Of a stretch of DNA of 64,000 nucleotides, positions 1,016 through 30,779 are shown piece after piece; position 1 is the stretch's first letter; each line of letters opens with the position of its first letter. The notes beneath the pieces were generated by a model, which saw nothing but the letters and a program-made list of their open reading frames with translations, had not been told where the DNA came from and did not search any database. Made by a program: the position numbers and the translations under genes. Source of the DNA: Alphaproteobacteria bacterium (GTDB lineage: Bacteria; Pseudomonadota; Alphaproteobacteria; SP197); contig OZ219747.1 of assembly GCA_964291265.2 (NCBI GenBank), positions 2,336,001 to 2,400,000 of the forward strand, in the 5' to 3' direction.

Positions 1016-2093
1016 CGGCCCTCGCTGGAAAGCCCCGAGAGCTTGCTCATGTCGCTCCGGAGGCTGCCGTCGTAATGCGCGTCGCAATCCGGATGCAGGC
1101 AAAAACGAAAGGCGCCGCGGATATGCCACGCGGGCAAGCCGTCCTCCGATACGGTGCCTCGCGTATCCACCCGGACACCGCGGGGCCGGTATTGCCGGAA
1201 ATGGGGTTTGAGCCAGGCCTCGTCACCGCGGAACTCCAGCCAGTCCTCCGGGTATTGATTCTCGATATCCTCGGGATCGAACAGCCCTGAAGGATCCGGC
1301 ATGAGATAGCCGGGCTGGACATCCTCGTCTTTGTGTGATCGTTCGGACAGGTCGCGGGGAAAGAACGTGTGCGGCTGCTTGCCGGCAAGCCTCGCCCAGA
1401 CGGGCAGGTATTCCTGGCCGCAGGCGCGGCAGAAGACGAGCGGGAAGAGGGCGCGGGAGCGGTCTCCGGGTTTGAACTGCTGGCCGTGCAGGGTGAGATA
1501 GCGCTCGTTTGGCGCCTCAAGGGTCGTGAAGGTGTTCCATGCTCCACTGATGAACTGGTGCAGCCGGAACGCGAAAAAGCTCTGGCCTTGTTCATTCCGG
1601 CTTTGGTGGGCGGTCAGGAGAAAGTTCGCCAGGTAGTCTCGGCAACGCGCGGCGTCGAGGCCGCTGTCGCCGGCAAGACGCTCCGAAGCCTGAAGGATGG
1701 TCAAGGGGCGCGAAATCCGCACAAGCCTGTCGCCCTGCTCTTCGAGCCCGAGATTGCGCTCCACCCAGGCTGCGACCGGATGGGCCGCAAGCGTTTCGTA
1801 TGTCGGATTCGAGGGGACTCCCCGCTCCATGGCGGTGCGCAGATCAGGTCCGCTCAGGCTTGCGCTGTGATCAGTGACGGGTCGCAGGGTTTCGGAAACG
1901 ATGTTGTCGGGATCGACAGCGGCGCCAAACAAGCGGCTTGCGACGTCCGCAACGGCAGCGTCCCGGTCGTCGGGTGAGCCTTCGGAGGCCATCGTCGCCG
2001 AGGTGCCGATACAGAGAAGACGCTCGTTGAACCGCTCCCGGACGCGTCGGACAAGCATGGCGACATCGGCTCCCTGCCGCCCGCGGTAGGTGT
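1016..2093 (-). pseudogene. Middle fragment of the split DEAD/DEAH helicase (DUF1998-associated type), 3'-truncated
   Basis: TYRGRQGADVAMLVRR, motif III IGTSATM, FRLHQFISG, CRAC; similarity ends at SGLSSEGR; continues the frame of 30769..31497. Confidence 0.85.
2082..2093 (+). repeat. Left junction direct repeat CGCGGTAGGTGT
   Basis: Identical to 30768-30779; flanking bases differ on both sides. Confidence 0.9.
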
Positions 2094-2462
2094 AAGCACA
2101 AGACCCGGCGATAACGGCACCAACGGGCCAACGGCAACCAAGCGTCTTCTCTCACTTCCCGACCCTTCTACAACAGGTTACATGACAATGCAAGAGAAAT
2201 TTCGATCGCGCCAGAACAACGCGGTGTCGTTCCGATGTCGTTAAATTGTTGCACCCAGGGAAGTAGAACGGCCACGACTGTCCGCTTGCCAGATCCCTCA
2301 CGGCCGTCCAGGATGACGCAACAGAAACATATCAGCGCGCCACAAGAACAACACAAGAAGGGGCTTCGATATCGCCATGCAGGATGAGCACAGGACAATG
2401 ACATCTCTGATCGGCCCTCATCCGGCGCATGTGTTTCCCCAGTCAACGCTGGTCACGGCGCC

Positions 2463-2801
2463 ATGACCGACCGCCGCCAGCACGCCGTCATGGCGACGGA
2501 CGCCGAGTGGGAACGCATCACCCGGGCGGCCCGTGCGGCCGGCATGGAGCTCTCCCGCTTCATCGTGCAGCGCACCCTGTTGCCGGATGCCTTGCCGGTG
2601 GAGGTGCTGCGGCGGGCCGTGCGGGAGGTGCTCGTCATGGCCCGCCTGGAAGAGCGGCGCCTGCGCGAGGCTGGCTCCGGGGAGGCCTGGGAGGAGGCCG
2701 GAGAGGCGGTCAACGCCTGGCTGGAGAGCGAGGGCGTCCTGGCGCGCCTGACCGATCCGGGAGCGGCCAACCGCTGGAAGGCGGCGGGAGACGGGGGATG
2801 A
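2463..2801 (+). CDS. RHH/MobC-like protein 1
   Basis: RRQHAVMATDAEWERITRAARAAGMELSRFIV strand-helix-helix pattern. Confidence 0.7.
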   Translation: MTDRRQHAVMATDAEWERITRAARAAGMELSRFIVQRTLLPDALPVEVLRRAVREVLVMARLEERRLREAGSGEAWEEAGEAVNAWLESEGVLARLTDPGAANRWKAAGDGG

Positions 2802-3091
2802 CGCGCCAGCTGAAGCGCCAGCGTTCCGTGCACTGTCCGCCCGAGGAACAGGAGATGATCCGCGGGAAGGCGAAGGCCGCCGGCAAGACGGTGTCGGGCT
2901 ACCTGCTTGACCTTGCCCGCGACGACGATCCGCAGATCCATCCCCTGGTGCTGTCGCCGGAGGATCAGCGTGAGTTCCTCGAGGGCACGAGGACCCTGCA
3001 GGAGGTGGCAAGCGCCCTGCGCCGGGAGCTTCCCGGCACGGAGGGCCTGACCCTCCTTGCGGCGGTGGCGGTGATGAGCCGATGGCGATGA
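2798..3091 (+). CDS. RHH/MobC-like protein 2
   Basis: KRQRSVHCPPEEQEMIRGKAKAAGKTVSGYLL; ATGA overlap with previous gene. Confidence 0.7.
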   Translation: MTRQLKRQRSVHCPPEEQEMIRGKAKAAGKTVSGYLLDLARDDDPQIHPLVLSPEDQREFLEGTRTLQEVASALRRELPGTEGLTLLAAVAVMSRWR

Positions 3092-3564
3092 GGCCGCGGC
3101 GGCGTCGCCGGAAGAAGCCGCCGTCGAAGCACCTGACGGTCTCGGCGACGGACGCCGAGTGGGAGATGGTGAGGTCGCAAGCGGCAGGCCGCGGGCTCTC
3201 GATCGCCCGCTATCTCGTGGGCCTGGCGGCCCGGGACGGGGCCGAGGGCGACAGGGGACCGCCGCTGGTGCTGGCCGGGGTTCAGCAGCGGGAGCTCCTG
3301 GAGCTTCACCGGGAGATGCTCTCGCTGCTGCAGGGCGATGAGGACACATCGTCGCTGATGGCCGACATCCAGGCGCGGGTCGCGGTGATGTTCAACCTGT
3401 GGGCGAAGGACATGATCGCCCGCGGCCGGGAGGAGGATCTCCAGGCCGAGCTGGCCTCGATCCTCGGCGAGGAGCAGGCGGCCGCCGTCATGGCCTCCGT
3501 CAGGAGAACGACGACGGAGCGCCCGCGGGCCGCGGATACGGTCCAGCCGGATCTCTTTTCCTGA
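3088..3564 (+). CDS. RHH/MobC-like protein 3
   Basis: KHLTVSATDAEWEMVRSQAAGRGLSIARYLV; ATGA overlap (alternative start 3082). Confidence 0.7.
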   Translation: MRPRRRRRKKPPSKHLTVSATDAEWEMVRSQAAGRGLSIARYLVGLAARDGAEGDRGPPLVLAGVQQRELLELHREMLSLLQGDEDTSSLMADIQARVAVMFNLWAKDMIARGREEDLQAELASILGEEQAAAVMASVRRTTTERPRAADTVQPDLFS

Positions 3565-3600
3565 ACGCAGGGGATCATCGGGGGAGCATGAGCCTGGCGC

Positions 3601-6600
3601 CTACATCGACAGGCCGCGGGACCGTCCACGCCTGCGGGCCTCGATCTCCCGGAGCGTCTCGGCCATGCGCCTCTCCCGCGCCGTCTCGTCATCCCAGGGC
3701 GCGCGTACGCATCCGCGCGTGAAGAGGGAGCGCATGTCCTGGCGGATCGTCGAACCGGCTGCAGGCGCTCCCTGCATCCCCCAGGAGCGGACCACGCGGA
3801 GCGTCACCCCGTCTCCCACCACGTCGTTGACGCCGGCCTCGACGGCCTCGACGATCGCCTCGACCTGCGCGGTGTCGCCCTCGAGCGGGGGCTGGACCGG
3901 GCCGGCATGCCGCACCATGGTCCAGCGTATCCTGTCGCCCGGAAGGACCCTCTCCTCGCAGGCGAAGGGGAAGGCGTCGTTGCGGGCGGGATACTGCCGG
4001 TCGCGTTCCCGCTGGCGCAGCGTCTCGTCGGGCCACAGGAGGCGCCGGCAGGTGACGTTGCCGGCAAGGGGGCGGAGCGTCTCGGCGTGGAGACTGCGGG
4101 TCTCTGTGCCGCCGACGGGACGAATGCGCAGGCGATCGATGACGTCGGGGCCGGTGACGTGGCTGACCATCTCGACAACCGCGTCGTGGCGGCCCTCTGC
4201 GTCGATCCAGCTGAGCCGGTCGCCGCGGAGCAGGGGCTCGGTCCCGTCCCAGCGGACGCTGCGGGAGACGTCGAACGGCGCCTCCCGCAGCTGCCGCATG
4301 GCGGTGCGGACCTCGAGGAGGTGGCGGGTCCGGCCTGCCTCCTCGCGCACCGCATCGTCCTGGGCCAGGCGTTCCGGGAGTGCCGCCACGATGTAGGCGA
4401 GGCGCCGGGGCGAAGCGCCCGCGGCGCGGATGTGGGCCTCCTGGTTCAGCGACCCTGCCTCCACGGCCTCCAGCAGCATCCGGGCACGGCGGCGCCAGGC
4501 GTCGGACAGCGCTGCGCTTCCCTGGAGGCCGGGTTGGAGAGCCAGGGCCTCCGCGACGAGCTCATGAGCCCGCTGGCGTTCACCGTCCCAGCCATCGAGC
4601 GTCTTGCGCCACGCGCTGACGGTGGTCCGGTCCTCCGCGGTAAGGCGCGGATCGTCCCGGAGCTGCCGCAGCGCCTCGCGCAGGGGCGCCATGTGGGGCG
4701 AATCGAGGGGATGGCGATGATGGTCCCGCACCTCCCCATTGATGGCGTCTGCCCGGCGCACGAGAGCCCGCAGGCTGTCGCCGAGGAGCATGGCGTCGAT
4801 GCGCTCGGCCTCGGTCTTGACGACATCCCCGGCGCCCGCCATGTCGCGGGCCGGCAGGCCGCCGGCCTTCCACGCGCCGGGGAGTGCACGACCTTCGGCC
4901 AGGAGCGCCGCGGCGTCGCGGCGCCAGAGGGCATCGCCCGGTTCCGCCGCCTCGCCCAGGCGGCCGGCGCGGCGGCGCCAGTCCGCGAGAACATCGAGGG
5001 CGGCGTCCGTCGCCATCCAGGAGGGCACCGAGGCAAGGCGTTGCTGGAAGGCATCGGGGGATGTTCCGAGGGCGCGAAGCTGCGCGGTGCGCTCGCCTTC
5101 GGGGATGGCGTCCATCGCCGCACGGGCTTCCTCTGCCGCCGCCGGGGCCACGGCGCGCCAGACCACACGGTCGTCGCCTGAGCCGCCGAACGTGGGCCGG
5201 TTCGCCTCGGCCTCCGCGAGGCGGGCAAGGGCTTTGGCGAGACGGCCGCGGTCACGGCGCCAGCGCCTGTCGTCATCGAGCCGGCGGACAAGCGTGCGCA
5301 CGGTTCCATCCGCCGTCGCGCCGTCGGCCACCGCCGCGGAGACCTCCTCGAGAAGGCCGGGCCAGTCAGCGAGGTCGCATGGCAGGCGTCCGGCGGCCTC
5401 GGCACGGTCCTCGATCTCCTTCACCCGCTGCAGAAGTGCGGCGCGGTCCAGGGCTCTGAAGGTCGTCTCGATGGTTGCCGCTGCCGCCGCGAGGCCGTGA
5501 CGGGCGTCGGCGAGGGCATCGAGGTGGCGGGCCTTCAGCGACCTGTCGGCCAGCATCGCCCGGGCGGCCGTCAGCAATGCCGCCGCCTCGGTGCGCCATG
5601 CCTGGGCATCGGGATGGTCTGCCACGATCCCGGGCCCCGTCTTCGCCAGGACCCGGGCCCTGGCGACGGTGGCCTCGGTCTCGCGGCGTTCCGCCTTCCA
5701 CCTGCCGTCGGCGTCCCGCCAGTCGGCCATCAGGTCGCGCGTTGCCTGCGGCGTGCCCTCGCGTCCGGCGAGATCCTCCAGGGCCGCCAGGAGCCGGGGG
5801 TAGTCCGCCGCGTCGAGGGGATGCACGCCGTCTTCCTCATGGGCCCGGTTGACGGACCAGGTGAGGGCGGCGAACGCCTGGCATGCGGCCGTCAACCGGG
5901 CTGCCTCGAGCTGTCTGACGACGCTGTCGACGGCGTCTTGGGCGCCCGCCATGTCGTCCGTGCGAGAGAGATGGGCGGCCCATTCCTCCACAAGCTTCCT
6001 GCCCTCCTCGATCAGGGCGCCCGCCCGTTCGACATTCTCCCGCGCGATGGTCGGACCCTCGCTGCCCTCGCGCAGCACCTCGGCGGCCCGCCCCGACCAG
6101 TCGTCGAGGCCGGTGAGGGCCGCGTCGGTGGCGCGCCACAGGGGCACGGCGCCGACCAGGGAAGCGAAGGCCTGGGCCGTCATGCCGCAGGCCGCGAGGT
6201 GGGCTCTGCGCTCGTGGTCGGCAAGGGCGACCACGGTCTCGAGGGCGCCGTCCAGGGCTTCGGCCCCGTCGCGCCACGCCCGGCGGTCCGGCGCGTCGCT
6301 GCGGAGGTCCGCGTAACGGGGCCTTGAGCGTTCGAGGTCCGCCAGCAGGCCGACGACCTCAGTCACGCGGCGGCGGTCGCGGCGCCAGCGCCCGTCGTCT
6401 GCCAGCCAGCGTTCCAGATGGCGGCCCACCGGATCGCCGGGTGCGGCGGCATCGACGGCACGGCGGATCTCGCTCAGCGTGCCGAACCATTCCGCGAGAT
6501 CGAGGGGCAGCCGGTCCTCGATGCGGGCCCGGCCAGCGATCCCGCAGACCCGCCACAGCAGCGTGGCGCGGTCAAGCGCCTCCAGTCTCTCGACGACCTC

Positions 6601-9600
6601 CCGGCCCGCCGTCACGATCCCGTCGCGCTCCTCCGGCATGGCGGCGATGTACGGACCATGAGGACCGTCCGTGTCAAGGAGCGAGCGCATGTGCCGCAGG
6701 TGAGCCTCCGCGTCACGCCGCCACCGCGTGACATCGGCATCCTCGGGATCGACCCCGCCCGCGCCATCGAGTGGCACGTGGTCTGCGAACCATGCTGCCA
6801 GCATGCCGACTCTCTGACGCGCCGACCTGAAGTCGTCGACGAGAGCGGTCTCCGTGGCATGGCGCGCCTGCCAGGCCTCCACCGCACGGCGTTCCTCCGC
6901 CGTCAGCCCCGTGGACCGCGCCAGGGCCGCGCCGCGGCGGGAGAGGTCCGCATGGTCCGCCAGGAGGGAGACCGGCACGGCCTTCTCCCGCGACCGCGTG
7001 AGCAAGGCACTCCAGTCGCGGGCAAAGCGCGCGGCATCGTCCTTCAGCCGCACCTTCTCCACACCGGCAAGCGCAGCCTCGAGGTGTCGGCGATCACCCT
7101 CCGGGAGTGCCGGCGCCTCCGCTCCGGCGAGCCGCCGCCGGGCGCTGTCGACAAGGGCCGTCCCCGCATCGCGCCACGTCCGCCAGGCCGGGCCGTCTCC
7201 TGCAGGGTGGCCTGTGGACCGGGCCGCCCATGCCAGTTCCGGCCAGCGCCGCGGCTGGTCCTGCAGGCCGGCGATGAGCTCCCGCACCTGGCGCTCCGCA
7301 GCGCGGGACGCTTCGTGGGCTCCAAGGCGTTCGTCGACGAAGGCGCGCATCTCGTCCGGCAGGTCCTCGACCGCCGCGAAGGCGGCAAGGCGCGCCATCA
7401 CCCCGGCATAGGCCGGAACCGACGAGGGAGGCGAACCCGACGCCTCCCGTTCCACCTCTTCCCAGTCGGTCACGACAGCGGCCCACGCATCGGGATCGAC
7501 GATCGGGCCGTCGAGATCCTCGCCCAGGGCCTCGAGCGCGGCGTCGGGCACGTCGGGCGAGGTCTCGAGACACTCGATCAGCGCCTCGCGGTCGTCCGTC
7601 AACAGCGTGAACCCCTGCGAGGCACGGCTCACCTCGACGTAGAACATCTCCCGGTTCGCCATGTGTCCGGCATCGAGGACGGCGATGACCTTCTTCGCCG
7701 TCTTCCCCTGGGCGCCGTGGACCGTGGAACTCCAGGCATGGTCGAGGTGGCGCAGGTGGGGATCGCTGCGGGACAGGGAGTACTCCGTGCCGTCGTCCGC
7801 CAGCAGCCGCACCCGCTCGGGCCCGATCGACAGCACGCGGGCTTCCTCGCCGTTGACCAGGGCCGGCGTGCGCCGCCGGGCCTTGCGGTTGCGCGTCCAG
7901 CGCACCCGGTCGCCGGCCCGGATCTCGATCTCCACGGTCTCGTGCACCCCGAGGTTGCGGGCGGCGTTGCCCGAGGGCCGGAAACGCCGTTCCCGGCCGT
8001 CGGCATGGTCGAGGACGACCCAGCCGTCGCCGACCCCGGTGATGGTGCAGACATCGTCGGCACGGCAACCATAGGCGTCGCGGTGGAAGACCACCGTGTC
8101 CCCCGGTTCGTAGTTGGCGAGAACCGAGGCCTCGATGCGGGTGTAGCGCCGGTCGACGAGGCGCCGGATGGTGAGCGTCCCTCCCGTCAGCACGCCTTCC
8201 TGCGCCAGGCCCTCGCGGATGGCCGCGTTGATCTCCCGGCGCACGGCATGGGTCGGGGCGAGGACGGCGCAGGCCTCCCGGTCCTCCGCCCCGAGGGCGA
8301 GCCACGCCCGGGCCGCCTCTGCACCGAGATCCTCCACCCGGTGTTCCGTCACCCGGTTGGCGAGCCGCGTCATGGCCTCGCCGGCCTCGCCCTCGCGGGC
8401 CCGCACCACCGCCTCCTTCAGGTCCGCATCCTCCTGGCGCAGCACCTCGTCCATCACCGCCGTCGCCATGCCGCGCTTCTGCATGAGGGCAAAGGGCTGG
8501 CCGGCGTCCACCGCCTTCAGCTGCGCCGTGTCGCCGACAAGCACCACGCGAGCGATACCAAGGGTTCCGGCCAGGGCGAGCAGCCTCTCCATCGCCACCG
8601 TGCCGATCATCGAGGCCTCGTCCACCACCAGCACCCCGCCGCCCATGTCCTCGCGGGCCCGCTCCAGGCGGTCGGGGTCCGAGAGATCGCCGTAGCGCAC
8701 CAGGAACCACTGAAGGGTGCGGGTCGGGACCCCGGCTTCCCTCTCCAGCACCCGCGCCGCGGCGGCCGAGGGAGCAAGGGCGATGAGCGGGCGCCCCTCC
8801 ACGAGGCCCGCCACCTCCCTCAGCATCGTCGTCTTGCCGCTGCCGGCCCGGCCTTGCACGCCCACCACCACATCGCCGGACCCCAGGACGTGACGCACCG
8901 CGTTCGCCTGCCCGGCGGTCAGTCTCGCCGCCGCAAGGCGGGCCGTCACCGTCTCTTCCGGGACCAGGGCGACGGCCAACGCCCGGCCCTGCCTCACCGC
9001 CTCCAGGATGCGCCGTTCCGCCTTGACCGCCCGGTCGGTGACGAAGGAACGGTCCGAGCCCCGCAGGACCGTCTCCAGCAACTCCCCTTCCGCGACGAGG
9101 CGCTCGATCGCCGCGTCGATCTCTTCCAGCCGGTAGCGTCCCGGCGCATGGCCCAGGACCAGTGCCCGGATGTCGCGAGCCGGGATCACCGTGCGTCTCT
9201 CCTCGACGTGAGCCACCGCCCGCGCCACCGCCTCGAGGACGCCCGTCTCGGGCTCGGCGATGCGTTCCGCCGGAGCCGAGGGGCGGAACCGGCGCCGCCG
9301 CACTACGGTCTCCACCACCGGCTCGAGGTGCGGCGCCGCAGGCGACCGCCGCCGACGCCGGCGTTCGTTCTTCGTCAGCTCCGCTTCCGGGTCCACCGGC
9401 AGCGCCATCTCCCGACCCGTCTCCGGTTCGACCGGCCTCGGCGGCCTGAGCGCCGCCTCGTCGCGCACAAGGCCCAGGGCGCGCGCCCGGGCGCGCCACT
9501 GCGGCACCAGCTCGGCAAGGCCCGCCTCGACCTTGCGGCGGCGCGTGTGGAGCGTCGCCTTCTGCGTTGCCTCACGCGTCGCCGGAAGCCCGTGCTTCTC

Positions 9601-10350: not shown

Positions 10351-10356
10351 GGAGCG

Positions 10357-11133
10357 TCACTCCAGCGTCACGATCTCCAGCGACAGGTCCGGCGGCGGCA
10401 AGGGCGGCAACTCCGCCGCCGGCAGCATGGCCGTGACCGCAGGAGGAGTCTCGAGATACCGCACCACGAAGTCGGTCATGAGGCCGAAGAAGAACGCGCA
10501 GCCGACGAGAAGGGGAAGAGCCACGCCGGTAAGCCAGAAATCGCGGTGGGAGCGCTTGAGCGCCCGCTCGATATGCCCGAACCGAAGGCCGAGCGAGGCG
10601 GTGTTCCTGACGAGGTCGCCCAGCGTCCGCGCTTCGTCGGCCTGCGCCTCCTTCTTCTCCGCCATGGCGTCGTGCGTCTCCTTGCGCAGCGTCTCGACGG
10701 CAGTCGACAGCGCCGGGACGGCATCCGCGGCAGCGGCGAGCGTGTCGGCGATCCTGTTCAGCGTGTCGTTCAGGGCGGCAAGGTCGGCGTGAACGGCGGC
10801 TGCCGACTTCACGTTGGCCTCGTCGAGCCTCGCCGCAAGACCGGCGACGTTGGCAAGGACGCCCTGCACCGCCTCCATCAGCTCCGCGTGTCCCTCCGCA
10901 CCGTTGCTGTCTTGCTCCTTGAGCCGCTCCGCAAGGGAAACGACGGCATCGACCAGGGCCTTCAGGACTTTGAGTTGCTGCTCCATCGACTTCTGCAACG
11001 CCGCGCCCTGCTCGCCGACGAGGGACTGGCACGCGTCCACGGCAGCCTGGATCGCCTCCAGCGCCTCCCGGTCCGCCGACGCCAGGCGCTGTGCCGGTTC
11101 AAGCGGGCGAAGAAGAGTCTTTCCTCGTGTCAT
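10357..11133 (-). CDS. Coiled-coil protein with C-terminal transmembrane helix
   Basis: ATG 11133 with GGGGAG RBS; Ala/Leu/Glu-rich heptads; FWLTGVALPLLVGCAFFFGLM; ends 6 bp before the relaxase start. Confidence 0.7.
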   Translation of the reverse strand: MTRGKTLLRPLEPAQRLASADREALEAIQAAVDACQSLVGEQGAALQKSMEQQLKVLKALVDAVVSLAERLKEQDSNGAEGHAELMEAVQGVLANVAGLAARLDEANVKSAAAVHADLAALNDTLNRIADTLAAAADAVPALSTAVETLRKETHDAMAEKKEAQADEARTLGDLVRNTASLGLRFGHIERALKRSHRDFWLTGVALPLLVGCAFFFGLMTDFVVRYLETPPAVTAMLPAAELPPLPPPDLSLEIVTLE

Positions 11134-11583
11134 GGCGCATCTCCCCCTGTCGTGACTTCGGCCCCTCCCCAGGCCATGACAGGGATGCACACAGGAAACC
11201 TGAGAATGCAACCGCTGAATCGACGGGGAGGGCAGCTACTCTGGAACTTTGGTAACTGCCCAGGTAACCGGCGAAGTCCTGAGTATGTGTTGACGTTGTT
11301 CGCGGTGAGCGTTGCTTAGTGTTGGCAAGTTGTTGATGCCGCATCCTCAACCAGTGACAATCGCCAACAACCACCTTGTGACCGAACGCTTGTAATGAAC
11401 AAATCTGACTGGCCGCGAGTGCGCATTCCGATCCCACCTTGCCGCCTAGACTACCCTCTGAAGAGACCGAACAAGCCATGATGGCTATATGCCAGCCGCT
11501 CTGGGATGCGGGAAAGATCCCAGTTGTAGGATGGGGAAGTGAGTTCGATGGAACTGAACTCCATCCCCCGTGTTTTCAGTGAA

Positions 11584-15774: not shown

Positions 15775-15822
15775 GGGGCCTCTCCCGGTAGCAGCGTTGC
15801 GAACATCCGACAGTCACAGATG

Positions 15823-21700: not shown

Positions 21701-22253
21701 GCTCACGGCTCACGATGTCGAACGCAAGATCGAACTTGTCACTGAGTTCATCCTGCCATTGTTCGACCAGGCTGCCGGGCGCGATGATGAGACAGCGCTC
21801 AAGGCTGCCCCTGAGCAGAAGCTCCTTGATGAGCAGTCCAGCCATGACCGTCTTGCCGGCCCCGGGATCGTCGGCCAGAAGAAAGCGCAGTGGCTGACGC
21901 TCCAGCATCGTGCCGTAGACCGCCGTCAACTGGTGAGGCAGGGGTTCAATGTGTGACGCATTGACCGCCGCGTAGGGATCAAAGAGGTGGGCAAGGCGAA
22001 TACGAAGCGCCTCCGCGGCAAGCCTGAAGAGATGCCCATCACCATCGAAGGCAAACCGTCTGGCGGGAACAACTTCGCTCAATCGGGGTTCGTCATCGCG
22101 ATAGAGGACCCGCTGGCCCAGACCGGCCGGCCCTTTCCAGGTTATCTCAACCGCATCGGTGCCATAGGCGCGCGTGGCGACAATCTCCACCGCTCCTTCA
22201 CCGACGAGGCCCGTGAGGCGGCTGCCCTGCACAATGTTCTCAAGCCTTATCAT
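18714..22253 (-). CDS. SNF2-family helicase with C-terminal DUF3883 nuclease domain
   Basis: LADDPGAGKT, DEAH, TATPH, GEGVNLQ, WNPNRLEQRFGRIHRIGQ, GYDIES...FIEVKGR; alternative GTG start 22268. Confidence 0.92.
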   Translation of the reverse strand: MIRLENIVQGSRLTGLVGEGAVEIVATRAYGTDAVEITWKGPAGLGQRVLYRDDEPRLSEVVPARRFAFDGDGHLFRLAAEALRIRLAHLFDPYAAVNASHIEPLPHQLTAVYGTMLERQPLRFLLADDPGAGKTVMAGLLIKELLLRGSLERCLIIAPGSLVEQWQDELSDKFDLAFDIVSRERVETSVTGNPFAEGQRLIARLDMLARNDDLRAKLEKAPPWDLIVCDEAHRMSASFFGQEVRYTKRFQLGSLAGRLTRHLLLMTATPHNGKEEDFQLFMGLLDADRFEGRFRQGVRKVDPSDMMRRLTKEELYRFDSRPLFPERRAYTVSYELSEREAELYEAVTRYVREEMNRADRLAVDGAKRRNNIGFALQILQRRLASSPAAIHESMKRRLARLEARLVEERHGRKNPPVRDRLSSVATELSFDENDFEEATGEELEVHEDRLVDRATAAQTITELEAEIAELRRLEGMAHTLRRSGEDTKWRELDRILDDPMVLGQEGGARRKIVIFAEARDTLTYLANRIRDRTGIPESVELIHGSVPRDRRRAIIAAFNDDPVLRFLLANDAAGEGVNLQRGGHLMVNYDLPWNPNRLEQRFGRIHRIGQTEVCHLWNLVASETREGAVYQRLLEKLETAREALGGKVYDVLGELFEDRPLKDLFMEAIRYGERPEVRANLFRTIDGKVDIDNINDLVARNKLTREGLDPSTVRGVRDAMERAAASRLQPHHIGSFFEVALAEAGGRMRRREKGRVEIMRVPPLLRDRDRLIGRSDPVLERYRRICFDKTHVSGQPQAALVAPGHPLLDALIDLTLERYRDLLTRGAALVDVADRHDAPRVLVALRHAIRDGRTVRNGQPQIVSERLQFVWLDENGRAAEGGPAPYLDCRPLDGAEREVVAALLDDPWLKGPLEDRARALAISDLVPRHLDEVRVKHLGDLDKVEDAVKDRMRREITHLTHRALEVEAEECAGKRSRLNSANIRRQVDTLYERLQRRLADIERQRDIAPLPPEICGAALIVPARLLGNGSTDDDGGDPPDTTHDSLSRAETETMAMEAVMAHERGLGNEPRDVSSEDRGYDIESREPETGRLRFIEVKGRRADARTITLTRNEILTALNAGETFILAAVLVRDGVAQEPLYVPDPAPLFGSEPGFNEVNRAITIASIAAAAQQTTRQDI

Positions 22254-22302
22254 GTCGAAGGAATACACCGCTTTACGTGAATGGCGCTATTGAAAGATTG
22301 TA

Positions 22303-22413: not shown

Positions 22414-24829
22414 CTGCCGAGTAATGACAATTACGACGTGACGTCAAGGGTCTGAATGTGTTGCAAGGGTTGCCGCTGTCCGGCCCGGAAGCCGACTTGA
22501 TGGCCAAGAACGGCGCTGGTCAGGCGGGTCGCGCCGTGCCACATGATCTGGTGTCCGGGCTCGGGATCATGCTTGCGATCCTGGTACCCGCCGAGATGGG
22601 CCACCAGGCGGACGGCATCCTCGAGGCGGTCGGGCGGCGTCATGCGCTTCTCGGCGGCGTAGTCGCGCAGGAAGCTCAGCTCTTGATCGGTGAACATCAG
22701 CTCGGGCTCACAGTCGGGAACCTGCCGTCCGAGCAGGGTCATGACCATGATGCGCCAGGCGATGACGGCGTTGATGGCGATGGCCCGCTGCAGTCGTTCT
22801 GCGGTCCGGAACAGCAGGAACTCGGTGCGACAGCCTGACTTGAGGACGCGGAAGAAGTCTTCGACCTTCCATCTCTGGAGGTAGAAGCCGACCATCCTGG
22901 CGGCATCCTCGGCGCTGCGCACCTTGAGCGTGGTGAGCAGGAACCACTGCACCGGGTTCTCGCCCTCGGGAGGATCGGTTTCGATGATGTGGACACCGGA
23001 AAGGGCGAGCGGCGCCCGGCCTTCGAGGGTGGAGGGCAAGGTCACGCGGCGGAACCGCAGTGCGCACTGAGCCACGCGTTTGCGTCGGGCCGCACGCGCC
23101 TTCGTTCGGCTCGCCTTCGGACGCTCGCTCAGGCCGTCGACCTCGACGGTGACGCCGCCGTCGGGCGGGCCTGCGCTCAAGGTTGCAAACAGCTTTGCGC
23201 GCCCCTTGCCGAGAACCCGGTCATGTCGGGCTCGGACCAGAAGCCCGACCCGTGGGTTGAGACGTTGATGATCGAACAGCTCGAAGAAGTCCGCTTCCCG
23301 ATCACAGACCGAGATCACGCGCGTCGTGCTTGCGACGTCGCGAACCGCTTCGTCGATGTCCTTGAAGCCTTCCATCCAGCGTCGGCTCTTCAACCGCTCC
23401 TCGGCCGCCGGGGAGCGCTGCTTCACCGCATCGAACCCCAGACGCAGAACCCCGAGCGGCAACCCCGTCTCGCTCACCGCCAGCGTCGCATGCAGGTGCA
23501 AACCCCGGGCCGACGAGGAGGTCTGGTTCTTGCCGATGACCTGAAGACCTTCGCATCCCGGCCGCCGGGAGAAATTGAGGTCGCTCCCGTCCTGGATCGC
23601 CAGCACGGTCGTTTGACCCTGGATGCGCCGGATCGTGCGCTCCCGATGCGGAGCAAGAATGTTCGCCACCGTCACCGCACTCTCCACCGGCTTCTCGATC
23701 AGGCGGTAGAAAGCACTGATCGCCGTGTTGTCGGCATCCGTGCTCGCGTGAATCTTGGAACCGGGACAGGAGGCCAGAAGAGCCGCACTCTTCACCAGGC
23801 GTGCCGACAGTCGCTTGTCACCCAAGGGAGCCCCTCCGAATTCGTTCGCCGCCCACACCGCACCATCCAGACCGTCTCCGGGTCCCAGCGACCAGGCAGG
23901 GTCGACCGGACCCACTCCCAGCTTGCGTCGCCAGCGCCGATCCAGACCGCGCATCCAGACCGTCTTGACGGTCTTGGCAGCGCGATGGTGACGATCCTGA
24001 CGACCCCGACCCTTCGTCCGCCCCGCACACACGAAGTTCGCAGCCCGCAGGCAGGTCCCGGCATAGCCCTCGTCCGCATAGGTTTCCACCACCAGGGGAC
24101 GGAACCCATACCGGGCCTCGAAATCCCTCGGTAGGCGCCGGAGAAGTCGCCCCAGAACATGGCTCGCCAGGTGCCGGCACCGCACCCGAAGCAGAAACCG
24201 GCTCAGACAGACCACCCGCTGGAGATGATCCCGCCGCTGGGACGGCGTCCATGCCATCCAGCGGTCGCGGGCCTCGCCCGTCAACGCCGCCGCCGAGATC
24301 CCGACCGCACCCAGGATCCCGTGCTCCGACGTCACAAGATAGCGCACCTGACAGCCGGCAAACGTCGTCATGCCATGAGGATGCTCGCGCGCCATCAACG
24401 TGTTCCATACCGTTCGCTCCGAAACCTCGGTCACCACCGACAGTTGCACCTGCGCAATCCCGGACAGACGGGACGGCACCCCGACCGGCAGCGGCACTTC
24501 TCCGTCAAGAAGACGCGGAGAGTTGTCCACGGCAGCAGCCTGCGGTGCCGGAAGCCGGATCTCCGGATACGACGATGCCAACGTGGTCAGGGCCTTCAGA
24601 CAACTCGACAGCTGCCAACGCCCGGCCGCGTCCCGGAACGAAAACTCTTCGCATACCCGGCGGCTCGCAGCCCGACGGCCAGAGTGCTGCTCCTGCGACA
24701 GGATGGCAGCAACGCGCGCCCGGGCCCCGTCCTCGCGCAGAGTGTGAAGAATGCTGGATTGTGCCATCATGGCGGCAAGCTAGCGCAGACCGAGCGGCAC
24801 GTCCAGACCTAATTTTCATGACATGGCAG
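22414..24829 (-). mobile_element. IS4-family (IS50-like) insertion sequence
   Basis: TIRs CTGCCGAGTAATGACAATT / CTGCCATGTCATGAAAATT (15/19); flanking repeat CCCTAGCC at 22406-22413 and 24830-24837. Confidence 0.85.
22431..24770 (-). CDS. IS4-family transposase fused to an N-terminal DUF4338-like domain
   Basis: WAANEFGGAPLGDKRL, IQDGS, VCDREAD, YLQRWKVEDFFRVLKSGC; N-terminal RDRWMAW...LSRFL...HLASHVL...VVETY. Confidence 0.88.
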   Translation of the reverse strand: MMAQSSILHTLREDGARARVAAILSQEQHSGRRAASRRVCEEFSFRDAAGRWQLSSCLKALTTLASSYPEIRLPAPQAAAVDNSPRLLDGEVPLPVGVPSRLSGIAQVQLSVVTEVSERTVWNTLMAREHPHGMTTFAGCQVRYLVTSEHGILGAVGISAAALTGEARDRWMAWTPSQRRDHLQRVVCLSRFLLRVRCRHLASHVLGRLLRRLPRDFEARYGFRPLVVETYADEGYAGTCLRAANFVCAGRTKGRGRQDRHHRAAKTVKTVWMRGLDRRWRRKLGVGPVDPAWSLGPGDGLDGAVWAANEFGGAPLGDKRLSARLVKSAALLASCPGSKIHASTDADNTAISAFYRLIEKPVESAVTVANILAPHRERTIRRIQGQTTVLAIQDGSDLNFSRRPGCEGLQVIGKNQTSSSARGLHLHATLAVSETGLPLGVLRLGFDAVKQRSPAAEERLKSRRWMEGFKDIDEAVRDVASTTRVISVCDREADFFELFDHQRLNPRVGLLVRARHDRVLGKGRAKLFATLSAGPPDGGVTVEVDGLSERPKASRTKARAARRKRVAQCALRFRRVTLPSTLEGRAPLALSGVHIIETDPPEGENPVQWFLLTTLKVRSAEDAARMVGFYLQRWKVEDFFRVLKSGCRTEFLLFRTAERLQRAIAINAVIAWRIMVMTLLGRQVPDCEPELMFTDQELSFLRDYAAEKRMTPPDRLEDAVRLVAHLGGYQDRKHDPEPGHQIMWHGATRLTSAVLGHQVGFRAGQRQPLQHIQTLDVTS

Positions 24830-24835
24830 CCCTAG

Positions 24836-26619
24836 CCCGGATTTGTCACCAAGTTTCCTATTGATGGGGATGGGGTTTGTGATATATGCACAAGACCAAT
24901 GAGTTACATACACCAAGGAGCCCATCCACATGGCGACACAGTGTTCAGCACAACAACTGGAGTTTGAAGGTCTCGGACGGCGGCAGATTGTGGCTAATTT
25001 CGATGGTGGCCGCATGACCTCCGACGGTGGTGCGCTTCTGTTGCGGGAAGCAGACAGGCTTTTCAACGTGACGGAGCGTGTCGCTGGCGCTTTTGTTGAT
25101 TATCGTGATCCCAGTCGCATTGAACACGATGTGACGACACTGGTGGCGCAGCGCATCATCGCTTTGGCTCTGGGTTACGAGGGTCTCAACGATCATGACC
25201 GTCTGCGTGACGACCCTGCTCTGGCCCTGGCTTGCGGGATCGACGATGTGGAGGGAGAGAGACGGGTTCGCGAGCGGGACCGTGGACATGTGCTGGCGGC
25301 CTCGAGCACGCTGAACCGCCTGGAACTCGGCGATCCGCATGAGGCGAGCCTGGACCGCTACAAGAAGATCGTGGCCGATCACGAAGCACTGGACTGTCTT
25401 CTTGTGGACCTGTTTCTGGAGAGCCATGCGGAACCGCCCAAGGAGATTGTTCTGGATCTTGATGCCACCGACGATCCGGTGCATGGCGACCAGGAGGGCA
25501 AGTACTTCCACGGCTATGACGACCACCATGGCTTCCTGCCGCTGTTCGTCGTCTGCGGCGAGCACATCCTGCGCTGCCGGTTGCGGACGGCCGACCATGG
25601 CGCGGCGGATGGCTCGGTGGATGAGCTGTCACGGATCGTTGAGCAGATCCGCGGCACGTGGCCCCGGACACGGATCGTGGTGCGGGGGGATGCCGACTTC
25701 GGCACGGACGACATCATGGTCTGGTGCGAGGACCATGGTGTCGACTATGTCTTTGGATAGGGTCAGAATCCTCGCTTGAACAGCATGGTCACGAAGGCAC
25801 TCAACAAGTCGAGGCGGCGTTGTCTGGTGTCCGGCAAGCCATCCAGACGGTATCGGGATCTGCGGTATCGCACGCAGAAGTCATGGTCCCGCGAGCGGCG
25901 AGTGGTGGCCAAGGCGGAATGGCTACCGGGACCGCGCGGCAAGAACGCTCGTTACATTGTGACGAGCATCTCCAGGAAGGAGGTCGGCGCTCGGGAACTC
26001 TATGAGCAGTTGTACTGTGCTCGGGGAGACATGGAGAACCGGATCAAGGATCAGCAGTTGTGGCTGTTCTCCGATCGCACGTCGTGCCATGTCATGCGGG
26101 CCAACCAGCTGCGCATGTACTTCTCGGCCTTTGCCGGCGCCCTCGTCGACATCCTGCGCCGTGTCGGCCTGCACGGCACCGAGTGTGCCCGCTGGCGCGT
26201 CGACACCATACGCTCCCGGTTGTTCAAGCTTGCCGGCAGGGTGACGAAGACGGTGCGCCGGCTTCGCCTCTCCTTTGCCTCGATCTTCCCCTTGCAGGAG
26301 GTGTTCGCCCGCACTCTCGTCAACCTGCGTGCCGCGGCCCAGGCGCCGCCGCCGGGATAGCTTGTGCTGCATCCCATCACAGTCTGATCACAGCGTCTCC
26401 CGAAGGCGTCGCCAGGGGTGTGCCTGGCGCATGTCCCGGCATAGACACGAACGCCAAAAAACGGCTTTCGGCTCCCTTGGCCTGCCAAAATGAGCCGAAA
26501 AACTATCCCAAATGCGACACGATTCCGCCAACAGCGCAATCAAAGTGAACCTTGTCTGCGCCCGAGGCTGAAGATTACGCCATCATTCCACTATCATTCC
26601 CCTTGGTGACGGAACCGGG
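24836..26619 (+). mobile_element. IS1380-family insertion sequence
   Basis: TIRs CCCGGATTTGTCACCAAG / CCCGGTTCCGTCACCAAG; CTAG on both flanks (24832-35, 26620-23). Confidence 0.88.
24930..26360 (+). pseudogene. IS1380 transposase with in-frame TAG at 25758-25760
   Basis: FDGGRMTSDGG, LDLDATDD, RGDADF, YCARGDMENRIKD; both ORFs share one frame. Confidence 0.88.
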
Positions 26620-26885: not shown

Positions 26886-28088
26886 GTGATGCCAAGAATT
26901 AGTCGTGGAAAAGGACGAGAGCGACGACTGCGTGAGAGACTCTTTGACGCAGGGAACAATAGATGCCCAATATGTCTTTCCGTCTTTAATCGATCAGATG
27001 TATCGAATGGAACAAGCGTGACGCTTGAACACGCGCCACCCAAGTCATTAGGAGGAAATCCGATATGTTTGACCTGCAAGGCTTGCAACAACAAGACAAG
27101 CAAAGCAGACCATCACGCATTCTTGTCTGCAAAAGCTAGAGATGAGTGGGCGGGAGGCCAAGGATCTCCCATTGACGTGAATTTTCTGGGCCATAAGAGA
27201 AAATACAGGTTTATCCCCAAAAATTCAAACGCTCCGTTTCCGGCACAGAAACACCTGTTTCAAAGCGGCATCATTAAACTAGATGCGTTACCATCGAAAT
27301 TGGACTTGTGTGCATATGAAGGAATCAGTTTCAAGATTCCACACCGCGACGACTTTGAATTTGTGAGCATGATTAAATCCGCCTATCTAATGGTTTTCGC
27401 TCTAATGGGTACACATGGATATCAATTCGCTGAAAATGTTGGAGTTCGTTTAATCAGAGAACAAATAATGAACCCTGAAGAGAAAATACTTAAAGGCGGT
27501 TTTGTCGGTGAAATGAAAGTTGATTCCGAGGACTTCCGCAAAATTGATAGGACAATAGTTTTCTTGCTCAATACAAGCCCCTATCCAATTTGGATAGTGC
27601 CGATGTCGCATGGTAGGATAGTTGTTTTGCCATCTGGCAACGCAGAACCAATCAATGAGTTAGTGATGAGTCCGAAACGAGTTGATGTTTCACTTGGCAA
27701 TTTGACTGGGTGGATATCGAGAAAGTTCAGTGATTCATCTGCAATTGGAGGCCCTATCAGAGAGTGGGGGAGCGACTTGCAAAAAACATCACTGGTGGGT
27801 ACTTTTGCCGGACCTATTCCCACAAGTAGGGAGCATTGGCGGTTTATTGTTGTTTTTTGTCAGGCGCAAAGGTATGTGGCATTGCCATTTTCTCCAATGG
27901 ACTGTCTTGACGAGGACTGTTCTGATGATTTAGATTTCATCAATGTAGTTGATATGTTTGGCGAGCCGGAGGTTAGGGGGAGAAAATTGGATAGGAGTCA
28001 ACTCACAACTACCGGCTTTTCTCATGCGAGAGAAATTACTATGGTCCGCAAGACAGGGAATGATGAACAAGGCTTTAAGGAGGATTAA
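26886..28088 (+). CDS. HNH-endonuclease-domain protein, low-GC cargo
   Basis: CPIC...TLEHAPPKSLGG...CLTCKACNN; AGGAG RBS; visibly AT-richer than its flanks. Confidence 0.75.
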   Translation: MMPRISRGKGRERRLRERLFDAGNNRCPICLSVFNRSDVSNGTSVTLEHAPPKSLGGNPICLTCKACNNKTSKADHHAFLSAKARDEWAGGQGSPIDVNFLGHKRKYRFIPKNSNAPFPAQKHLFQSGIIKLDALPSKLDLCAYEGISFKIPHRDDFEFVSMIKSAYLMVFALMGTHGYQFAENVGVRLIREQIMNPEEKILKGGFVGEMKVDSEDFRKIDRTIVFLLNTSPYPIWIVPMSHGRIVVLPSGNAEPINELVMSPKRVDVSLGNLTGWISRKFSDSSAIGGPIREWGSDLQKTSLVGTFAGPIPTSREHWRFIVVFCQAQRYVALPFSPMDCLDEDCSDDLDFINVVDMFGEPEVRGRKLDRSQLTTTGFSHAREITMVRKTGNDEQGFKED

Positions 28089-28347
28089 GAGACATAAAGT
28101 GTGTTAAGCTGAATTTCGCCGGGCGGTAATCGAACCATTCCTTGAGGTGACCACGGTTGCCCTCCAGCACCGCCAGCTCCAATACGAACCCACCCGTGCG
28201 GTCGGGGCGATACCAAGTTCCACGACGACCTCGACCTGATGTGTGTCACCTTCGATGTATTGTTGCCGCCCGAGGATCAGACCGCGAACCAGTGTCAAAC
28301 GCGTGGTGGTCGAACGAAACCGGGCTGTCCTGAGACGGAGCCTGGCC

Positions 28348-29505
28348 TCAGGATTCCGTGCCCGATGCCATGATCTGTGTCATGACGTTCCCGACCCGCT
28401 CCGCCGCCGCCTCGACATCCCTGTCCGCAACGTGGGCATAGCGCAGGGTCATTGACACTTGGCGGTGACCGAGGAGTTTCGCCACTGTCGGAAGTGGCAC
28501 ACCATTCAGGACAGCCTGGCTGGCAAAGTTGTGTCGCAGGTCATGCAGACGCACATCCTCGATGCCGGCCCGTTTGCGGAGGGTAATCCACATCTGATCG
28601 ACGCTCGATATGGGTGCGGTTGGATCGCAGGGCGACGGAAAGACATGATCGCTGCCCGCCCTGGGCTGACGAGCAATGATCCGGCGGGCCTTGCTGTTGA
28701 GGTAGACTTTCCGTGGTCCGGTCTTGCTGTCGGCAAGATCGAGCGTGTCGGTTCCGACTTCGGACCACCTGAGGGTTCGGATTTCGCTGCAACGGCATCC
28801 CGTATAGAAGAGCAGGCGAATGATGTCTGCCTGAGCCGATCGCCCCGGGCGTTCGGCGACCAACCGGTCCAGTTCGGCATGCAGGCGACGGGCCTCGTCC
28901 CGGGACAGGAACCGGTTGAACCTGCGTTGCGGGTTCCGGCGAATTCCGTTTGCTGGATTGGTCTCGAGATGACCATGAACCGCCGCGTGGTTGAGAATTT
29001 GGCGCAAGGTGTCAAGAGTCCTGTTAGCACCACCGGGCGCCGTCGCGCTGTAGCGGTCGAACCAGGCCATCACCTCCTTGCGTGTGATCCGGTCCAGCGG
29101 CATGTCGCCGAAGGTCGGCAACAGTTGATGTGTTAGTACGCTGTCGGTGCTGCGCCGGGTGTTGGGCTTGAGACGACCGAAACACTCGGAACGCCAGACA
29201 CCTGCGACAAAGTCGCCGAAGAGAGGTACGGGAACCAGGGGAGTGTCCACCAGCGGTTCCATGTCGCCGGACTGGATGGCGAGACACCGGGAGCGCGCTT
29301 CCTCGACAGACATGCTTGTCACGGGACCCAGCGTCCGGCGTTTCGAGGAACCGTGCCGGGAGTTCAGGACAACGAACGACTTGTGGCCGGAAGACCGCAC
29401 CCTGACGCCAAGGCCCATAATCCGCGTGTCCCATACGGTATACTCGACGGGCATCGTCGCAAGGCGCGCAATGGTGCGATCACTCAACCGCATCTTTCGT
29501 TTCAT
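28348..29505 (-). CDS. Tyrosine recombinase/integrase 2 with arm-binding N-terminal domain
   Basis: WDTRIMGLGVRV; TGCR, DSKTG, HDLRH, LLGH, TLRY. Confidence 0.95.
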   Translation of the reverse strand: MKRKMRLSDRTIARLATMPVEYTVWDTRIMGLGVRVRSSGHKSFVVLNSRHGSSKRRTLGPVTSMSVEEARSRCLAIQSGDMEPLVDTPLVPVPLFGDFVAGVWRSECFGRLKPNTRRSTDSVLTHQLLPTFGDMPLDRITRKEVMAWFDRYSATAPGGANRTLDTLRQILNHAAVHGHLETNPANGIRRNPQRRFNRFLSRDEARRLHAELDRLVAERPGRSAQADIIRLLFYTGCRCSEIRTLRWSEVGTDTLDLADSKTGPRKVYLNSKARRIIARQPRAGSDHVFPSPCDPTAPISSVDQMWITLRKRAGIEDVRLHDLRHNFASQAVLNGVPLPTVAKLLGHRQVSMTLRYAHVADRDVEAAAERVGNVMTQIMASGTES

Positions 29506-30638
29506 ACCTCGACCCTCCCACCCAGGGCCGAAACAAGGGACTCGGCTACCTCGTGAACCGTGTCATCGGCAAGATGCGTGTACTTGAGCGTGGTCGCTGG
29601 ATCAGTGTGGCCCAGAAGCTTGCCTATGGTGGGGATCGTCTCGCCATGAGCGAGTGCTATCGAGGCGTAGGTGTGACGCAAGTCATGGCAGCGAACATCC
29701 GCGATCCCCGCCTCCGAGCGCACATTGAGCCAGAAGCGGTGGAGCCCACCCGCCGAAAGGTGGCGACCTCCACGGGGAGACGGGAACATCCAGCGGCCCC
29801 TTCGGGGCAGCCCGTCAAGGATCCGGCGTGCCGCTGATGACAGCCAGACCGTGCGCGGGCCCGTCTTGCTGTCACGCAAGTAGAGCTTGCCCTCACGGTA
29901 GTCCGACCACCGGAGACCGAGAACCTCGCTCTTGCGACATCCGGTCAGAAGCAGCAATCGCACGATCGCGGCCAACAGGGAGCTCTTTTCGCGCTTGTCG
30001 TTGAGAACTCGGCCCAAGCGCCTGATCTCGTCGTGGCTGAGGAACCTCTCGCGATGGCGTCGGCGGTAGCGCTTGATGCCTTTGCAAGGATTGGAGCCTT
30101 CCGGACGATAGCCGTAGACCTCGGCCTGCCGCATGATGACGGAAAGAACCGGCGCTGAACGGTCCGCGGCAACGGGCGTGGCATGAAGTGAAGCGAACCA
30201 GCGCTGAACGTCGTGTCGCGTGATGTCCCTTATGGCACGCCCCTTGAAACACGGCAGGATCTGGTTCCTGAGGTAGCCGAGATTGACCTCCAGGGTGCGT
30301 GGCTTCCAGTGCCTCCGGTATCGCTTGAAGACCTCGTCTGCGACATCCTCGAACAGGATGGCTTCGGTCTCGACAGGCAAGGCTCCGTCAGTCGTGGAGC
30401 GTGACGCGAGAAGGGATGTTGCCTTGTTCCGGGCGCACTCCAGAGCCATGGCCCCGGCGTCGCCTATGGGGTGCCAGACCCTCTTGCCGTCGACCTGGCT
30501 GTGAAGGAAGTACCGCTTGCGGCCTGAGGGGAGGATACGCACACCGAAACCCCGGATGACGGTATCCCGAACGTCGAGGGTCTTCTTGTCCGGTTTGAGG
30601 GTATCGACCCGTCGTTGCGTGAGGTGTCTCTTCGGCAT
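29502..30638 (-). CDS. Tyrosine recombinase/integrase 1 with arm-binding N-terminal domain
   Basis: RDTVIRGFGVRI; TGCR, DSKTG, HDLRH, LLGH, TLKY; starts ~130 bp from the right junction. Confidence 0.95.
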   Translation of the reverse strand: MPKRHLTQRRVDTLKPDKKTLDVRDTVIRGFGVRILPSGRKRYFLHSQVDGKRVWHPIGDAGAMALECARNKATSLLASRSTTDGALPVETEAILFEDVADEVFKRYRRHWKPRTLEVNLGYLRNQILPCFKGRAIRDITRHDVQRWFASLHATPVAADRSAPVLSVIMRQAEVYGYRPEGSNPCKGIKRYRRRHRERFLSHDEIRRLGRVLNDKREKSSLLAAIVRLLLLTGCRKSEVLGLRWSDYREGKLYLRDSKTGPRTVWLSSAARRILDGLPRRGRWMFPSPRGGRHLSAGGLHRFWLNVRSEAGIADVRCHDLRHTYASIALAHGETIPTIGKLLGHTDPATTLKYTHLADDTVHEVAESLVSALGGRVEV

Positions 30639-30767
30639 GGCATTCTCCCCGATTCCTGTTGCACCGGGGGGTACGGAAACGACATGAACCCGCTTCCCCG
30701 GCGAAACTTCGTGAGAGAGAACGCTTATTGTTTCAGTTGGTTACAGTTCCGTTTAGCACCACAGGTG

Positions 30768-30779
30768 CGCGGTAGGTGT
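30768..30779 (+). repeat. Right junction direct repeat, preceded by hairpin GCACC-ACA-GGTGC
   Basis: Identical to 2082-2093; hairpin at 30756-30768. Confidence 0.9.

Follow-up and report, generated by a model that had tools for sequence, protein, structure and literature searches.

MTnPi1-3 of Prevotella intermedia are integrative mobilizable elements (IMEs) with tandem tyrosine integrases and a relaxase, occur in several copies per genome (PMC4755523; PMC5704250), and have a site of low specificity in which five bases are free, TTAC NNNNN AA (PMC5704250). The IME_oriT elements of streptococci are tyrosine-integrase IMEs whose crossover lies inside a relaxase nic site (PMC7563843; PMC5704250). 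More than one tyrosine recombinase is also found in GInts (PMC5385486) and in strand-biased circularizing elements (SEs; PMC10214605). GInts have 10- to 11-nt imperfect repeats and generate attachment site (att) variants that drive target specificity (PMC5385486), and SEs possibly copy themselves out (PMC10214605). The origins of transfer (oriTs) of plasmids R388 (PMC4814116; PMC3264647) and F (PMC2504302) contain a hairpin, GCACC-GAA(A)-GGTGCG, with GTGT or GTCT before the nick, and the R388 relaxase TrwC integrates DNA at nic-like sites (PMC3264647). According to a 2017 review, no known canonical IME encodes a MobF relaxase (PMC5704250). What we say of these papers, here and below, refers to excerpts of them. 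Here, we describe an element of about 28.7 kb in an alphaproteobacterial genome, within a stretch of 64,000 nucleotides that was analyzed as a whole (the window, to which all unlabeled coordinates refer). We found that it is likely a variant of the IME with a fused oriT and att site and a drifting, element-carried target code, apparently undescribed in the open-access literature.

The window element combines a MobF relaxase, a pair of paralogous Arm-domain integrases (IntA and IntB), and an attachment site at its own putative nic, a combination apparently found in none of the compared systems as far as their descriptions were consulted. MTnPi1-3 belong to Bacteroidetes, use an AT-rich TTAC/TTGC-N5-AA site (N5 being five variable bases), and carry a primase gene, whereas the window element uses N5-GGTGT and gave no primase match. 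Their integrases have no significant mutual homology, whereas IntA and IntB are 38% identical and have Arm domains, and the text consulted of PMC4755523 contains no nic overlap. IME_oriT has one integrase and inserts in the MobT oriT of another element; here, the nic-like site belongs to the end of the element itself, which has a MobF relaxase and targets scattered over the chromosome. The oriTs of R388 and F have a fixed 8-nt spacer, compared with 10 to 12 nt including the variable N5 in this family. The window element also differs from them in having no coupling protein or type IV secretion system (T4SS), in having its site split at the boundary, and in having two tyrosine recombinases alongside. 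GInts and SEs need four genes and have no mobilization genes (PMC5385486; PMC10214605), and SEs have a 6-bp footprint that differs between ends (PMC10214605), while N5 here usually matches. Their descriptions set SEs, GInts, RIT, and Tn554 apart, with a three- or four-gene recombination operon and no relaxase against two recombinase genes plus a relaxase here. We found no described family with this backbone in the open-access literature, and the parts of PMC8138268 and PMC4853378 that were consulted gave no match.

The element is bounded by two copies of the 12-bp direct repeat CGCGGTAGGTGT, at 2082-2093 and 30768-30779. It interrupts a minus-strand DEAD/DEAH helicase gene with a DruE-like N terminus, whose 5' part lies at 30780-31548 and whose 3' part lies at 910-2081. 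When the 28,686 bases between the repeat copies were removed in silico, we obtained one open minus-strand frame of 651 aa (...LDELHTYRGRQGADV) that reads through DELHTYRGRQG. Both halves of the target were matched collinearly in 120 of the 120 longer helicase homologues examined, and DELHTYRGRQG was present in 115 of them. An initial annotation of the window had proposed exact 12-bp repeats around a 28.7-kb insert and a restored ELHTYRGRQ reading, and both proposals were borne out. The restored helicase is still short, at 651 aa versus about 1740 aa in its relatives, with a second break near 970-990, where the homology of the 3' part to full-length relatives ends. With four occurrences in the 4.8-Mb genome, the 12-mer is by itself weak evidence for the ends. 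The ends are real because the window element aligns with its sister copies from 2089 onward and no further than 30769-30780. This end homology and the N5 pairing statistics given below rule out a chance repeat.

Across the family, the repeat is 10 bp long and consists of N5 and GGTGT, here at 2084-2093 and 30770-30779. Right ends read TYAGCACC-NNN-GGTGCG-(0-2 bases)-N5-SGTGT, and at left ends N5-SGTGT precedes a purine. On the plus strand of the window, the left junction (2082-2093) has the N5 CGGTA at 2084-2088 and GGTGT at 2089-2093, with element DNA from 2094, directly after the predicted nick. The right junction (30753-30779) is a nic-like site that consists of TTA, the hairpin GCACC-ACA-GGTGC at 30756-30768, a G, N5 at 30770-30774, and GGTGT at 30775-30779, with the predicted nick after 30779. 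We tried to pair the ends of 60 elements and obtained 48 pairs from 13 genomes. The first element base after GTGT was a purine in 48/48. N5 was identical at both ends in 37 of the 48 and showed one mismatch in 8, two in 2, and three in 1, while N5 pairs taken across elements were identical in 6/2256. Most of the mismatches (12/15) fell at positions 4 and 5 (p 0.002). Elements of the CTnDOT and Tn916 types also have a variable 5- to 6-bp central segment beside fixed bases, but the coupling sequence at one of their ends is not the same as that at the other, whereas N5 matched in those 37 pairs. Outside the 10-mer, end-to-end identity was only 14 to 25 of 48 per position (19/48 and 14/48 at +1 and +2), and the extra CG beside the core is common to both ends in only about half of the elements. 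Thus, the 12-bp repeat in the window is the 10-bp core plus a CG shared by some targets. For the sister copies E2, E3, E4, E6, and E7, uninterrupted targets with the site present once, sometimes as a one-base variant, were found in the source genome as insertion sequence (IS) or group II intron copies. Left ends lie 320 to 570 bp upstream of the first ribbon-helix-helix (RHH) gene and share a CTCTC motif. In the window, this CTCTC-rich motif (2142-2155, plus strand) is inverted relative to a GAGAG-rich motif at the right end (30711-30724, plus strand), and it stands at a similar distance from the end, about 55 nt inside, in other left ends. Both motifs are candidate arm-type integrase sites.

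Among 139 distinct right ends, we counted 118 different N5. Between sisters at different sites, the mean number of N5 matches out of 5 was 3.3 at an end identity of at least 97% (7 pairs), 2.3 at 94 to 97% (25 pairs), 1.9 at 90 to 94% (28 pairs), 1.4 at 85 to 90%, and 1.3 below that or in the background (9401 pairs). Among sisters, position 1 was best kept and positions 4 and 5 worst. Twelve disjoint sister pairs gave 32/60 matches (p about 1e-5). Because close sisters at different sites share N5, and more so at higher end identity, these comparisons indicate that N5 is carried by the element and changes stepwise. Random target-site duplication was favored on 113 ends, where inheritance was weak, but was rejected with 139 ends, which include more close sisters. 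Tyrosine recombinases test homology during strand exchange and are tolerant toward the middle of the overlap. The N5 pattern fits such an exchange and not blind duplication. Each of three N5-GGTGT cores that we counted occurs 9 to 26 times in the source genome.

The right end, TTAGCACC-NNN-GGTGCG-N5-GGTGT, is nearly letter for letter the R388 hairpin and closes with the F-type GTGT. The R388 relaxase substrate is GCGCACCGAAAGGTGCGTATTGTCT/ATAG (PMC4814116), and the F nick sequence is TTTGCGTGGGGTGT/GGT (PMC2504302). The element boundary coincides with the predicted nick, and an inverted repeat ending in GCG upstream of GTGT/GTCT, a trait of MOBF oriTs, is present. The stem pairing and a G-N-A loop are kept across distant families, the loop reading G-N-A in 80/113 ends. 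C-GNA-G loops are unusually stable. What we take to be an integration host factor (IHF)-like box adjoins the hairpin in 59/113 ends. The relaxase itself has R388 TrwC as its best Protein Data Bank match and closest solved relative (E 8.5e-47). Its tyrosines and HUH motif are present, and the catalytic motifs are conserved in 32 aligned domains. We conclude that the element ends coincide with a putative MobF nic-like site. Neither this coincidence nor the variable, element-inherited 5-bp core of the repeat, the most unusual features of the element, had been proposed in the initial annotation. The nearest plasmid relaxases are 40 to 44% identical. Of the two plasmid relaxase regions inspected, one has a nic-like TGCG-N-GTGT, and the GCACC hairpin site near the relaxase was absent from both; no plasmid relatives of the first RHH protein were matched.

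More distant tandem integrases, 34 to 43% identical to IntA, are present on plasmids of Shewanella, Photobacterium, Vibrio, and sphingomonads, some of which are MOBF plasmids, and in other genomes. We found a canonical CG-N4-GTGT 60 to 270 bp upstream in 12/16 of these pairs, compared with 2.7% of random windows, and those 12 have the 8-nt GCG-to-nick spacing of R388 and F. Several pairs have nic stems of different sequence that still pair. On a Shewanella baltica plasmid, leading-region-type genes are followed in order by nic, the integrase pair, cargo, traI, and traD, and the nic beside the integrase pair there is thus probably a real oriT. The occurrence of a nic beside such distant pairs indicates that the coupling of integrase pair and nic is old. 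On the Shewanella, Photobacterium, and Vibrio plasmids at L236:14830-14850, L242:11845-11870, L243, and L246, which are MOBF or former MOBF plasmids, the tandem integrases lie just on the trailing side of an F-type nic. On a V. europaeus plasmid (L237), similarity to L246 breaks off inside the F-type nic and gives way to a coding-like sequence that is unrelated, which looks like the trace of a recombination of the module at this point. A 24-kb stretch at G346:C1:93035-117090 (L247, L277) lies between direct TGCGTGGGGTGT repeats and carries a tandem integrase pair, a type I restriction-modification system, and an Ig/Fn3 protein; no relaxase was matched in the portions of it examined.

From the observed ends, repeat rule, N5 inheritance, likeness to the R388 and F nic, and intact catalytic motifs, we infer the cutting enzyme, overlap length, nicking, excision, and transfer as follows. 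It is probable, though by no means secure, that this is an IME with its attachment site inside its own oriT, which IntA and IntB integrate and excise and whose relaxase nicks the same site for helper-driven transfer. In the circular form, hairpin-GGTGCG-N5-GGTGT would lie between the divergent intA and RHH genes and would be attP and oriT at once. IntA and IntB, acting on one strand each like XerC/XerD, would exchange strands over an overlap of about N5 plus GG(T), with homology needed mainly at positions 1 to 3 and mismatches tolerated at positions 4 and 5. Each element would choose one of about 10 to 25 matching chromosomal 10-mers. At a mismatched landing site, replication of the heteroduplex could leave the target base at the right end, and we propose that core and target preference would drift in this way lineage by lineage. 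The relaxase would nick the same site, and transfer would proceed via a helper conjugation system. Like an IME, the element carries a module for its integration, flanked by an att site at either end (two intact integrases and empty targets), and a relaxase of its own, with no T4SS or coupling-protein family among the scanned open reading frames (ORFs) and no VirB4-type ATPase or TrwB-type coupling protein found in the genome. The intact MobF relaxase and the nic-like site suggest that it is mobilizable.

Several observations weigh against this proposal. The spacer between hairpin and predicted nick is 10, 11, and 12 nt in 34, 103, and 2 of the 139 ends, whereas R388 and F have 8, and N5 varies beside the nick in a way unlike known relaxase targets; the site may thus no longer be nicked. 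In one clear case, E7 versus G013b (relaxase domain 90%, integrase region 59%), spacer length tracks the integrase and not the relaxase. For the hairpin of the window copy, stability does not exceed that of shuffles (z -1.1). In the end pairing, the 12 of 60 elements with no recognizable partner end were dropped, and one set of left ends was picked by best match, which favors N5 identity. Many of the close-sister pairs come from one genome (G061), and the pairs are not fully independent. Among the distant loci, the 8-nt CG-N4-GTGT pattern was fixed after the sequences had been inspected, several of the 16 loci are related, and the pattern lies on the opposite strand in 2/16. A helper is scarce: the source genome (G000) has no VirB4-type ATPase or TrwB-type coupling protein (the search covered these types of T4SS component), and among 23 genomes of the genus the VirB4-type families PF03135 and PF19044 were found in 0 and 1, and strong PF10412 matches in 3, none of them in G000. 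Finally, no circle joint of the sister copy E2 was present among the 15 of 70 joints shown (assembled contigs, three runs, one study). The empty-site joint of E2 was uninformative because its target is a multicopy IS.

In a rival account, the relaxase would copy the element out and the integrases would paste it in. Nicking at the left junction (host N5-GGTGT^element), unwinding, and a stop at the right hairpin would yield a single-strand circle and keep the donor site, and the integrase pair would insert the copy elsewhere, so that the element would multiply without conjugation machinery. The geometry of the junctions fits: each stops precisely at GGTGT, and only the one that the strand would reach last has a hairpin. 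TrwC recombines two oriT copies without conjugation, one copy being reducible to 17 bp (PMC3264647). End motifs numbered 15, 16, 12, 30, and 5 in G013, G005, G019, G061, and G062, with none in the reversed control, and the first four, high numbers come from hosts where VirB4-type ATPases were mostly not found. However, several elements with intact repeats have no relaxase match between their ends (e.g., G013n, G061b, and G061l), which could reflect service in trans or later loss, and ordinary excision and reintegration during replication can also raise copy number. The scarce helper, the copy numbers, and the junction geometry keep this route open, but we consider it unlikely. A broader form of the idea, which we offer tentatively and with considerable doubt, is a transposon of a rolling-circle copy-out, paste-in kind, assembled from components of conjugation. 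A MobF relaxase-helicase would copy the element between nic-like junctions without a T4SS, a heterodimeric tyrosine recombinase would paste it at sites set by an element-carried, rewritten five-base code, and through the same oriT-coupled pair, F-type plasmids of Vibrio, Shewanella, and Photobacterium would be able to recombine at their nick site.

The nic could instead be a relic. An ancestral tandem-integrase module would have been directed at the oriTs of plasmids, in the manner of the streptococcal IME_oriT, and would have retained the sequence for use by its recombinases, with the true oriT elsewhere or lost. The long and variable spacer, its tracking of the integrase, and the Shewanella and Vibrio plasmids with an integrase pair beside an apparent plasmid oriT fit this explanation. 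Against it are the G-N-A loop and stem pairing kept across distant families and the conserved relaxase motifs, and a reading of the window element by eye brought up no further hairpin-linked TGCG-N-GT[G/C]T site of note. We regard it as distinctly improbable. Last, it is very hard to believe that integration of the transferred strand at nic-like sites of the chromosome is the work of the relaxase alone, with the integrases confined to resolution or regulation: end identity does stop at the predicted nick and TrwC does integrate into minimal and mismatched targets (PMC3264647), but nick strand transfer neither needs nor makes N5 identity, which is nonetheless common and inherited, the motif travels with the integrase pair, and the single orientation to the fork of TrwC chromosomal integration (PMC3264647) contrasts with a 6:6 split of 12 ends in the source genome between replichore strands (assigned from the GC skew of one contig), which also shows no lagging-strand bias.

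The proposal of an IME with an att site in its own oriT bears on several questions. oriT and att are normally separate sites, and here they are apparently fused. Distantly related integrase pairs, including those of conjugative plasmids of cultured Gammaproteobacteria and sphingomonads, also have this apparent fusion beside them, which is thus testable in tractable strains. It bears on the rarity of oriTs found in relaxase-carrying islands, as described in the part consulted of bioRxiv 10.64898/2026.01.13.699239, since the boundary of each element in this family would divide the site. Another question on which it bears is whether a natural counterpart exists to the integration linked to relaxases, which has so far been an activity of TrwC in the laboratory. 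As a tool, a pair of recombinases would be of interest if its target could be set by exchanging a 5-bp overlap beside GGTGT. Finally, members of the family shuffle defense cargo and interrupt genes, at as many as about 30 sites in one assembly.

The source genome contains seven copies with both ends, 13 to 52 kb long and one nested in another, plus several remnants. The initial annotation had proposed a mobilizable element of a family that it could not match to a described IME, and co-occurrence of the backbone genes elsewhere had been set beforehand as the point on which that could fail. We found intA (E<=1e-60) and the relaxase domain each in 14/22 other genomes of the genus and the third small gene in 12/22, the last not being found in 38 genomes outside the genus. 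The claim of an undescribed family stands, given this spread and the literature comparison above, while the word mobilizable rests on the relaxase and the nic-like site. A scan for the end-motif pattern, which covered 24/64 parts of the species collection, gave 120 loci with 124 matches (two pairs of loci overlap). intA starts about 100 to 130 bp from the end motif in 85/124 of these matches. The locus titles are mostly alphaproteobacterial metagenome-assembled genomes (Defluviicoccus, Rhodospirillales, Paracoccaceae, Ruegeria, and Silicimonas), plus Gammaproteobacteria and one Chloroflexota bin. Catalytic motifs were intact in 39/40 intA matches and 38/40 intB matches. Targets comprise the helicase, IS, group II introns, and tRNA and other genes. 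The copies in IS, introns, and other genes exclude helicase-specific targeting, and a fixed attB or tRNA targeting is excluded by the diversity of N5, with only a few ends in tRNA genes. At loci L097, L194, and L190, the end motif continues, by reading only, into sequence resembling tRNA 5' ends (GGGTGTAGCCAAGTGG, GGGTGTAGTTCAGCGG). E7 (G000:C2:936300-953040) and E4 (G000:C2:2129350-2142640) have different left halves and occupy the same site in two copies of one repeat, presumably a group II intron, and over 30 uninterrupted copies of this site were matched in the genome. At L074 (G019:C90), L207, L209, and L211 (G064), the relaxase is co-oriented with the RHH genes instead of facing them, with the same end motif.

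At the left of the window element, three small plus-strand genes face the minus-strand relaxase and coiled-coil genes. All three had been annotated as RHH genes. The three small genes are there, and two of them match NikA-like families weakly: RHH-like gene 1 (2463-2801; E 4e-4, below the Pfam cutoff), likely a relaxase accessory protein, and RHH-like gene 2 (2798-3091; E 1e-6), which also has weak MobA/TraJ matches. The third (3082-3564) has no Pfam match and is weakly similar to the other two in relatives. The predicted giant relaxase was confirmed above cutoff as a MobF relaxase-helicase of 2249 aa (3601-10350, minus strand), with a TrwC domain carrying YY..YY and HUH motifs, a superfamily 1 helicase, and a C-terminal extension of about 1300 aa. 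The extension (3601-7500) has no family match, and an Atlas look-up of its last 349 aa gave nothing usable. In 27 elements, the total length of the relaxase ranges from 877 to 2261 aa and the extension from none to about 1300 aa. A coiled-coil protein with one C-terminal hydrophobic segment (10357-11133, minus strand), for which an Atlas look-up likewise gave nothing usable, had been counted as a transmembrane backbone gene. It does not belong to the backbone: it is restricted to the clade of the window element, and it precedes the relaxase in only 4/27 elements checked. At the right end, as predicted, lie two tyrosine recombinase genes on the minus strand, intB (28348-29505) and intA (29502-30638). 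Each product has Arm-binding, SAM-like, and catalytic domains with intact catalytic motifs. The scanned ORFs of the element matched no T4SS, coupling-protein, or Rep family, also in agreement with the initial annotation.

Between the backbone parts lies the defense cargo that had been expected there. It includes a complete Hma system (12532-22268, minus strand) in which hmaA (SNF2 helicase, 18714-22268), hmaB (methylase, 15823-18717), and hmaC (with HEPN_Swt1, 12532-15774) are adjacent and match PADLOC models with E values of 0, 0, and 3e-234. A small Mrr_N-like protein (11584-11910, minus strand) falls below the cutoff, and a low-GC gene (26886-28088, plus strand) has a weak HNH match. Two transposase genes complete the interior. 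One, at 22431-24770 on the minus strand, encodes an IS4-family transposase with a DruA-like N terminus, of which several divergent groups are multicopy in the genome. The other, an IS1380-type gene (DDE_Tnp_1_4; 24930-26360, plus strand), is broken by an in-frame stop near 25760. Short segments within 11240-11400 are repeated dozens of times genome-wide at about 85% identity and are possibly the ends of a small mobile repeat. Outside the element, the target region is itself a defense island with Mrr-like and AlbA_2 genes, and an AbiEi/AbiEii pair at 31497-33821 is accompanied by a partial 915-bp-spaced duplicate.

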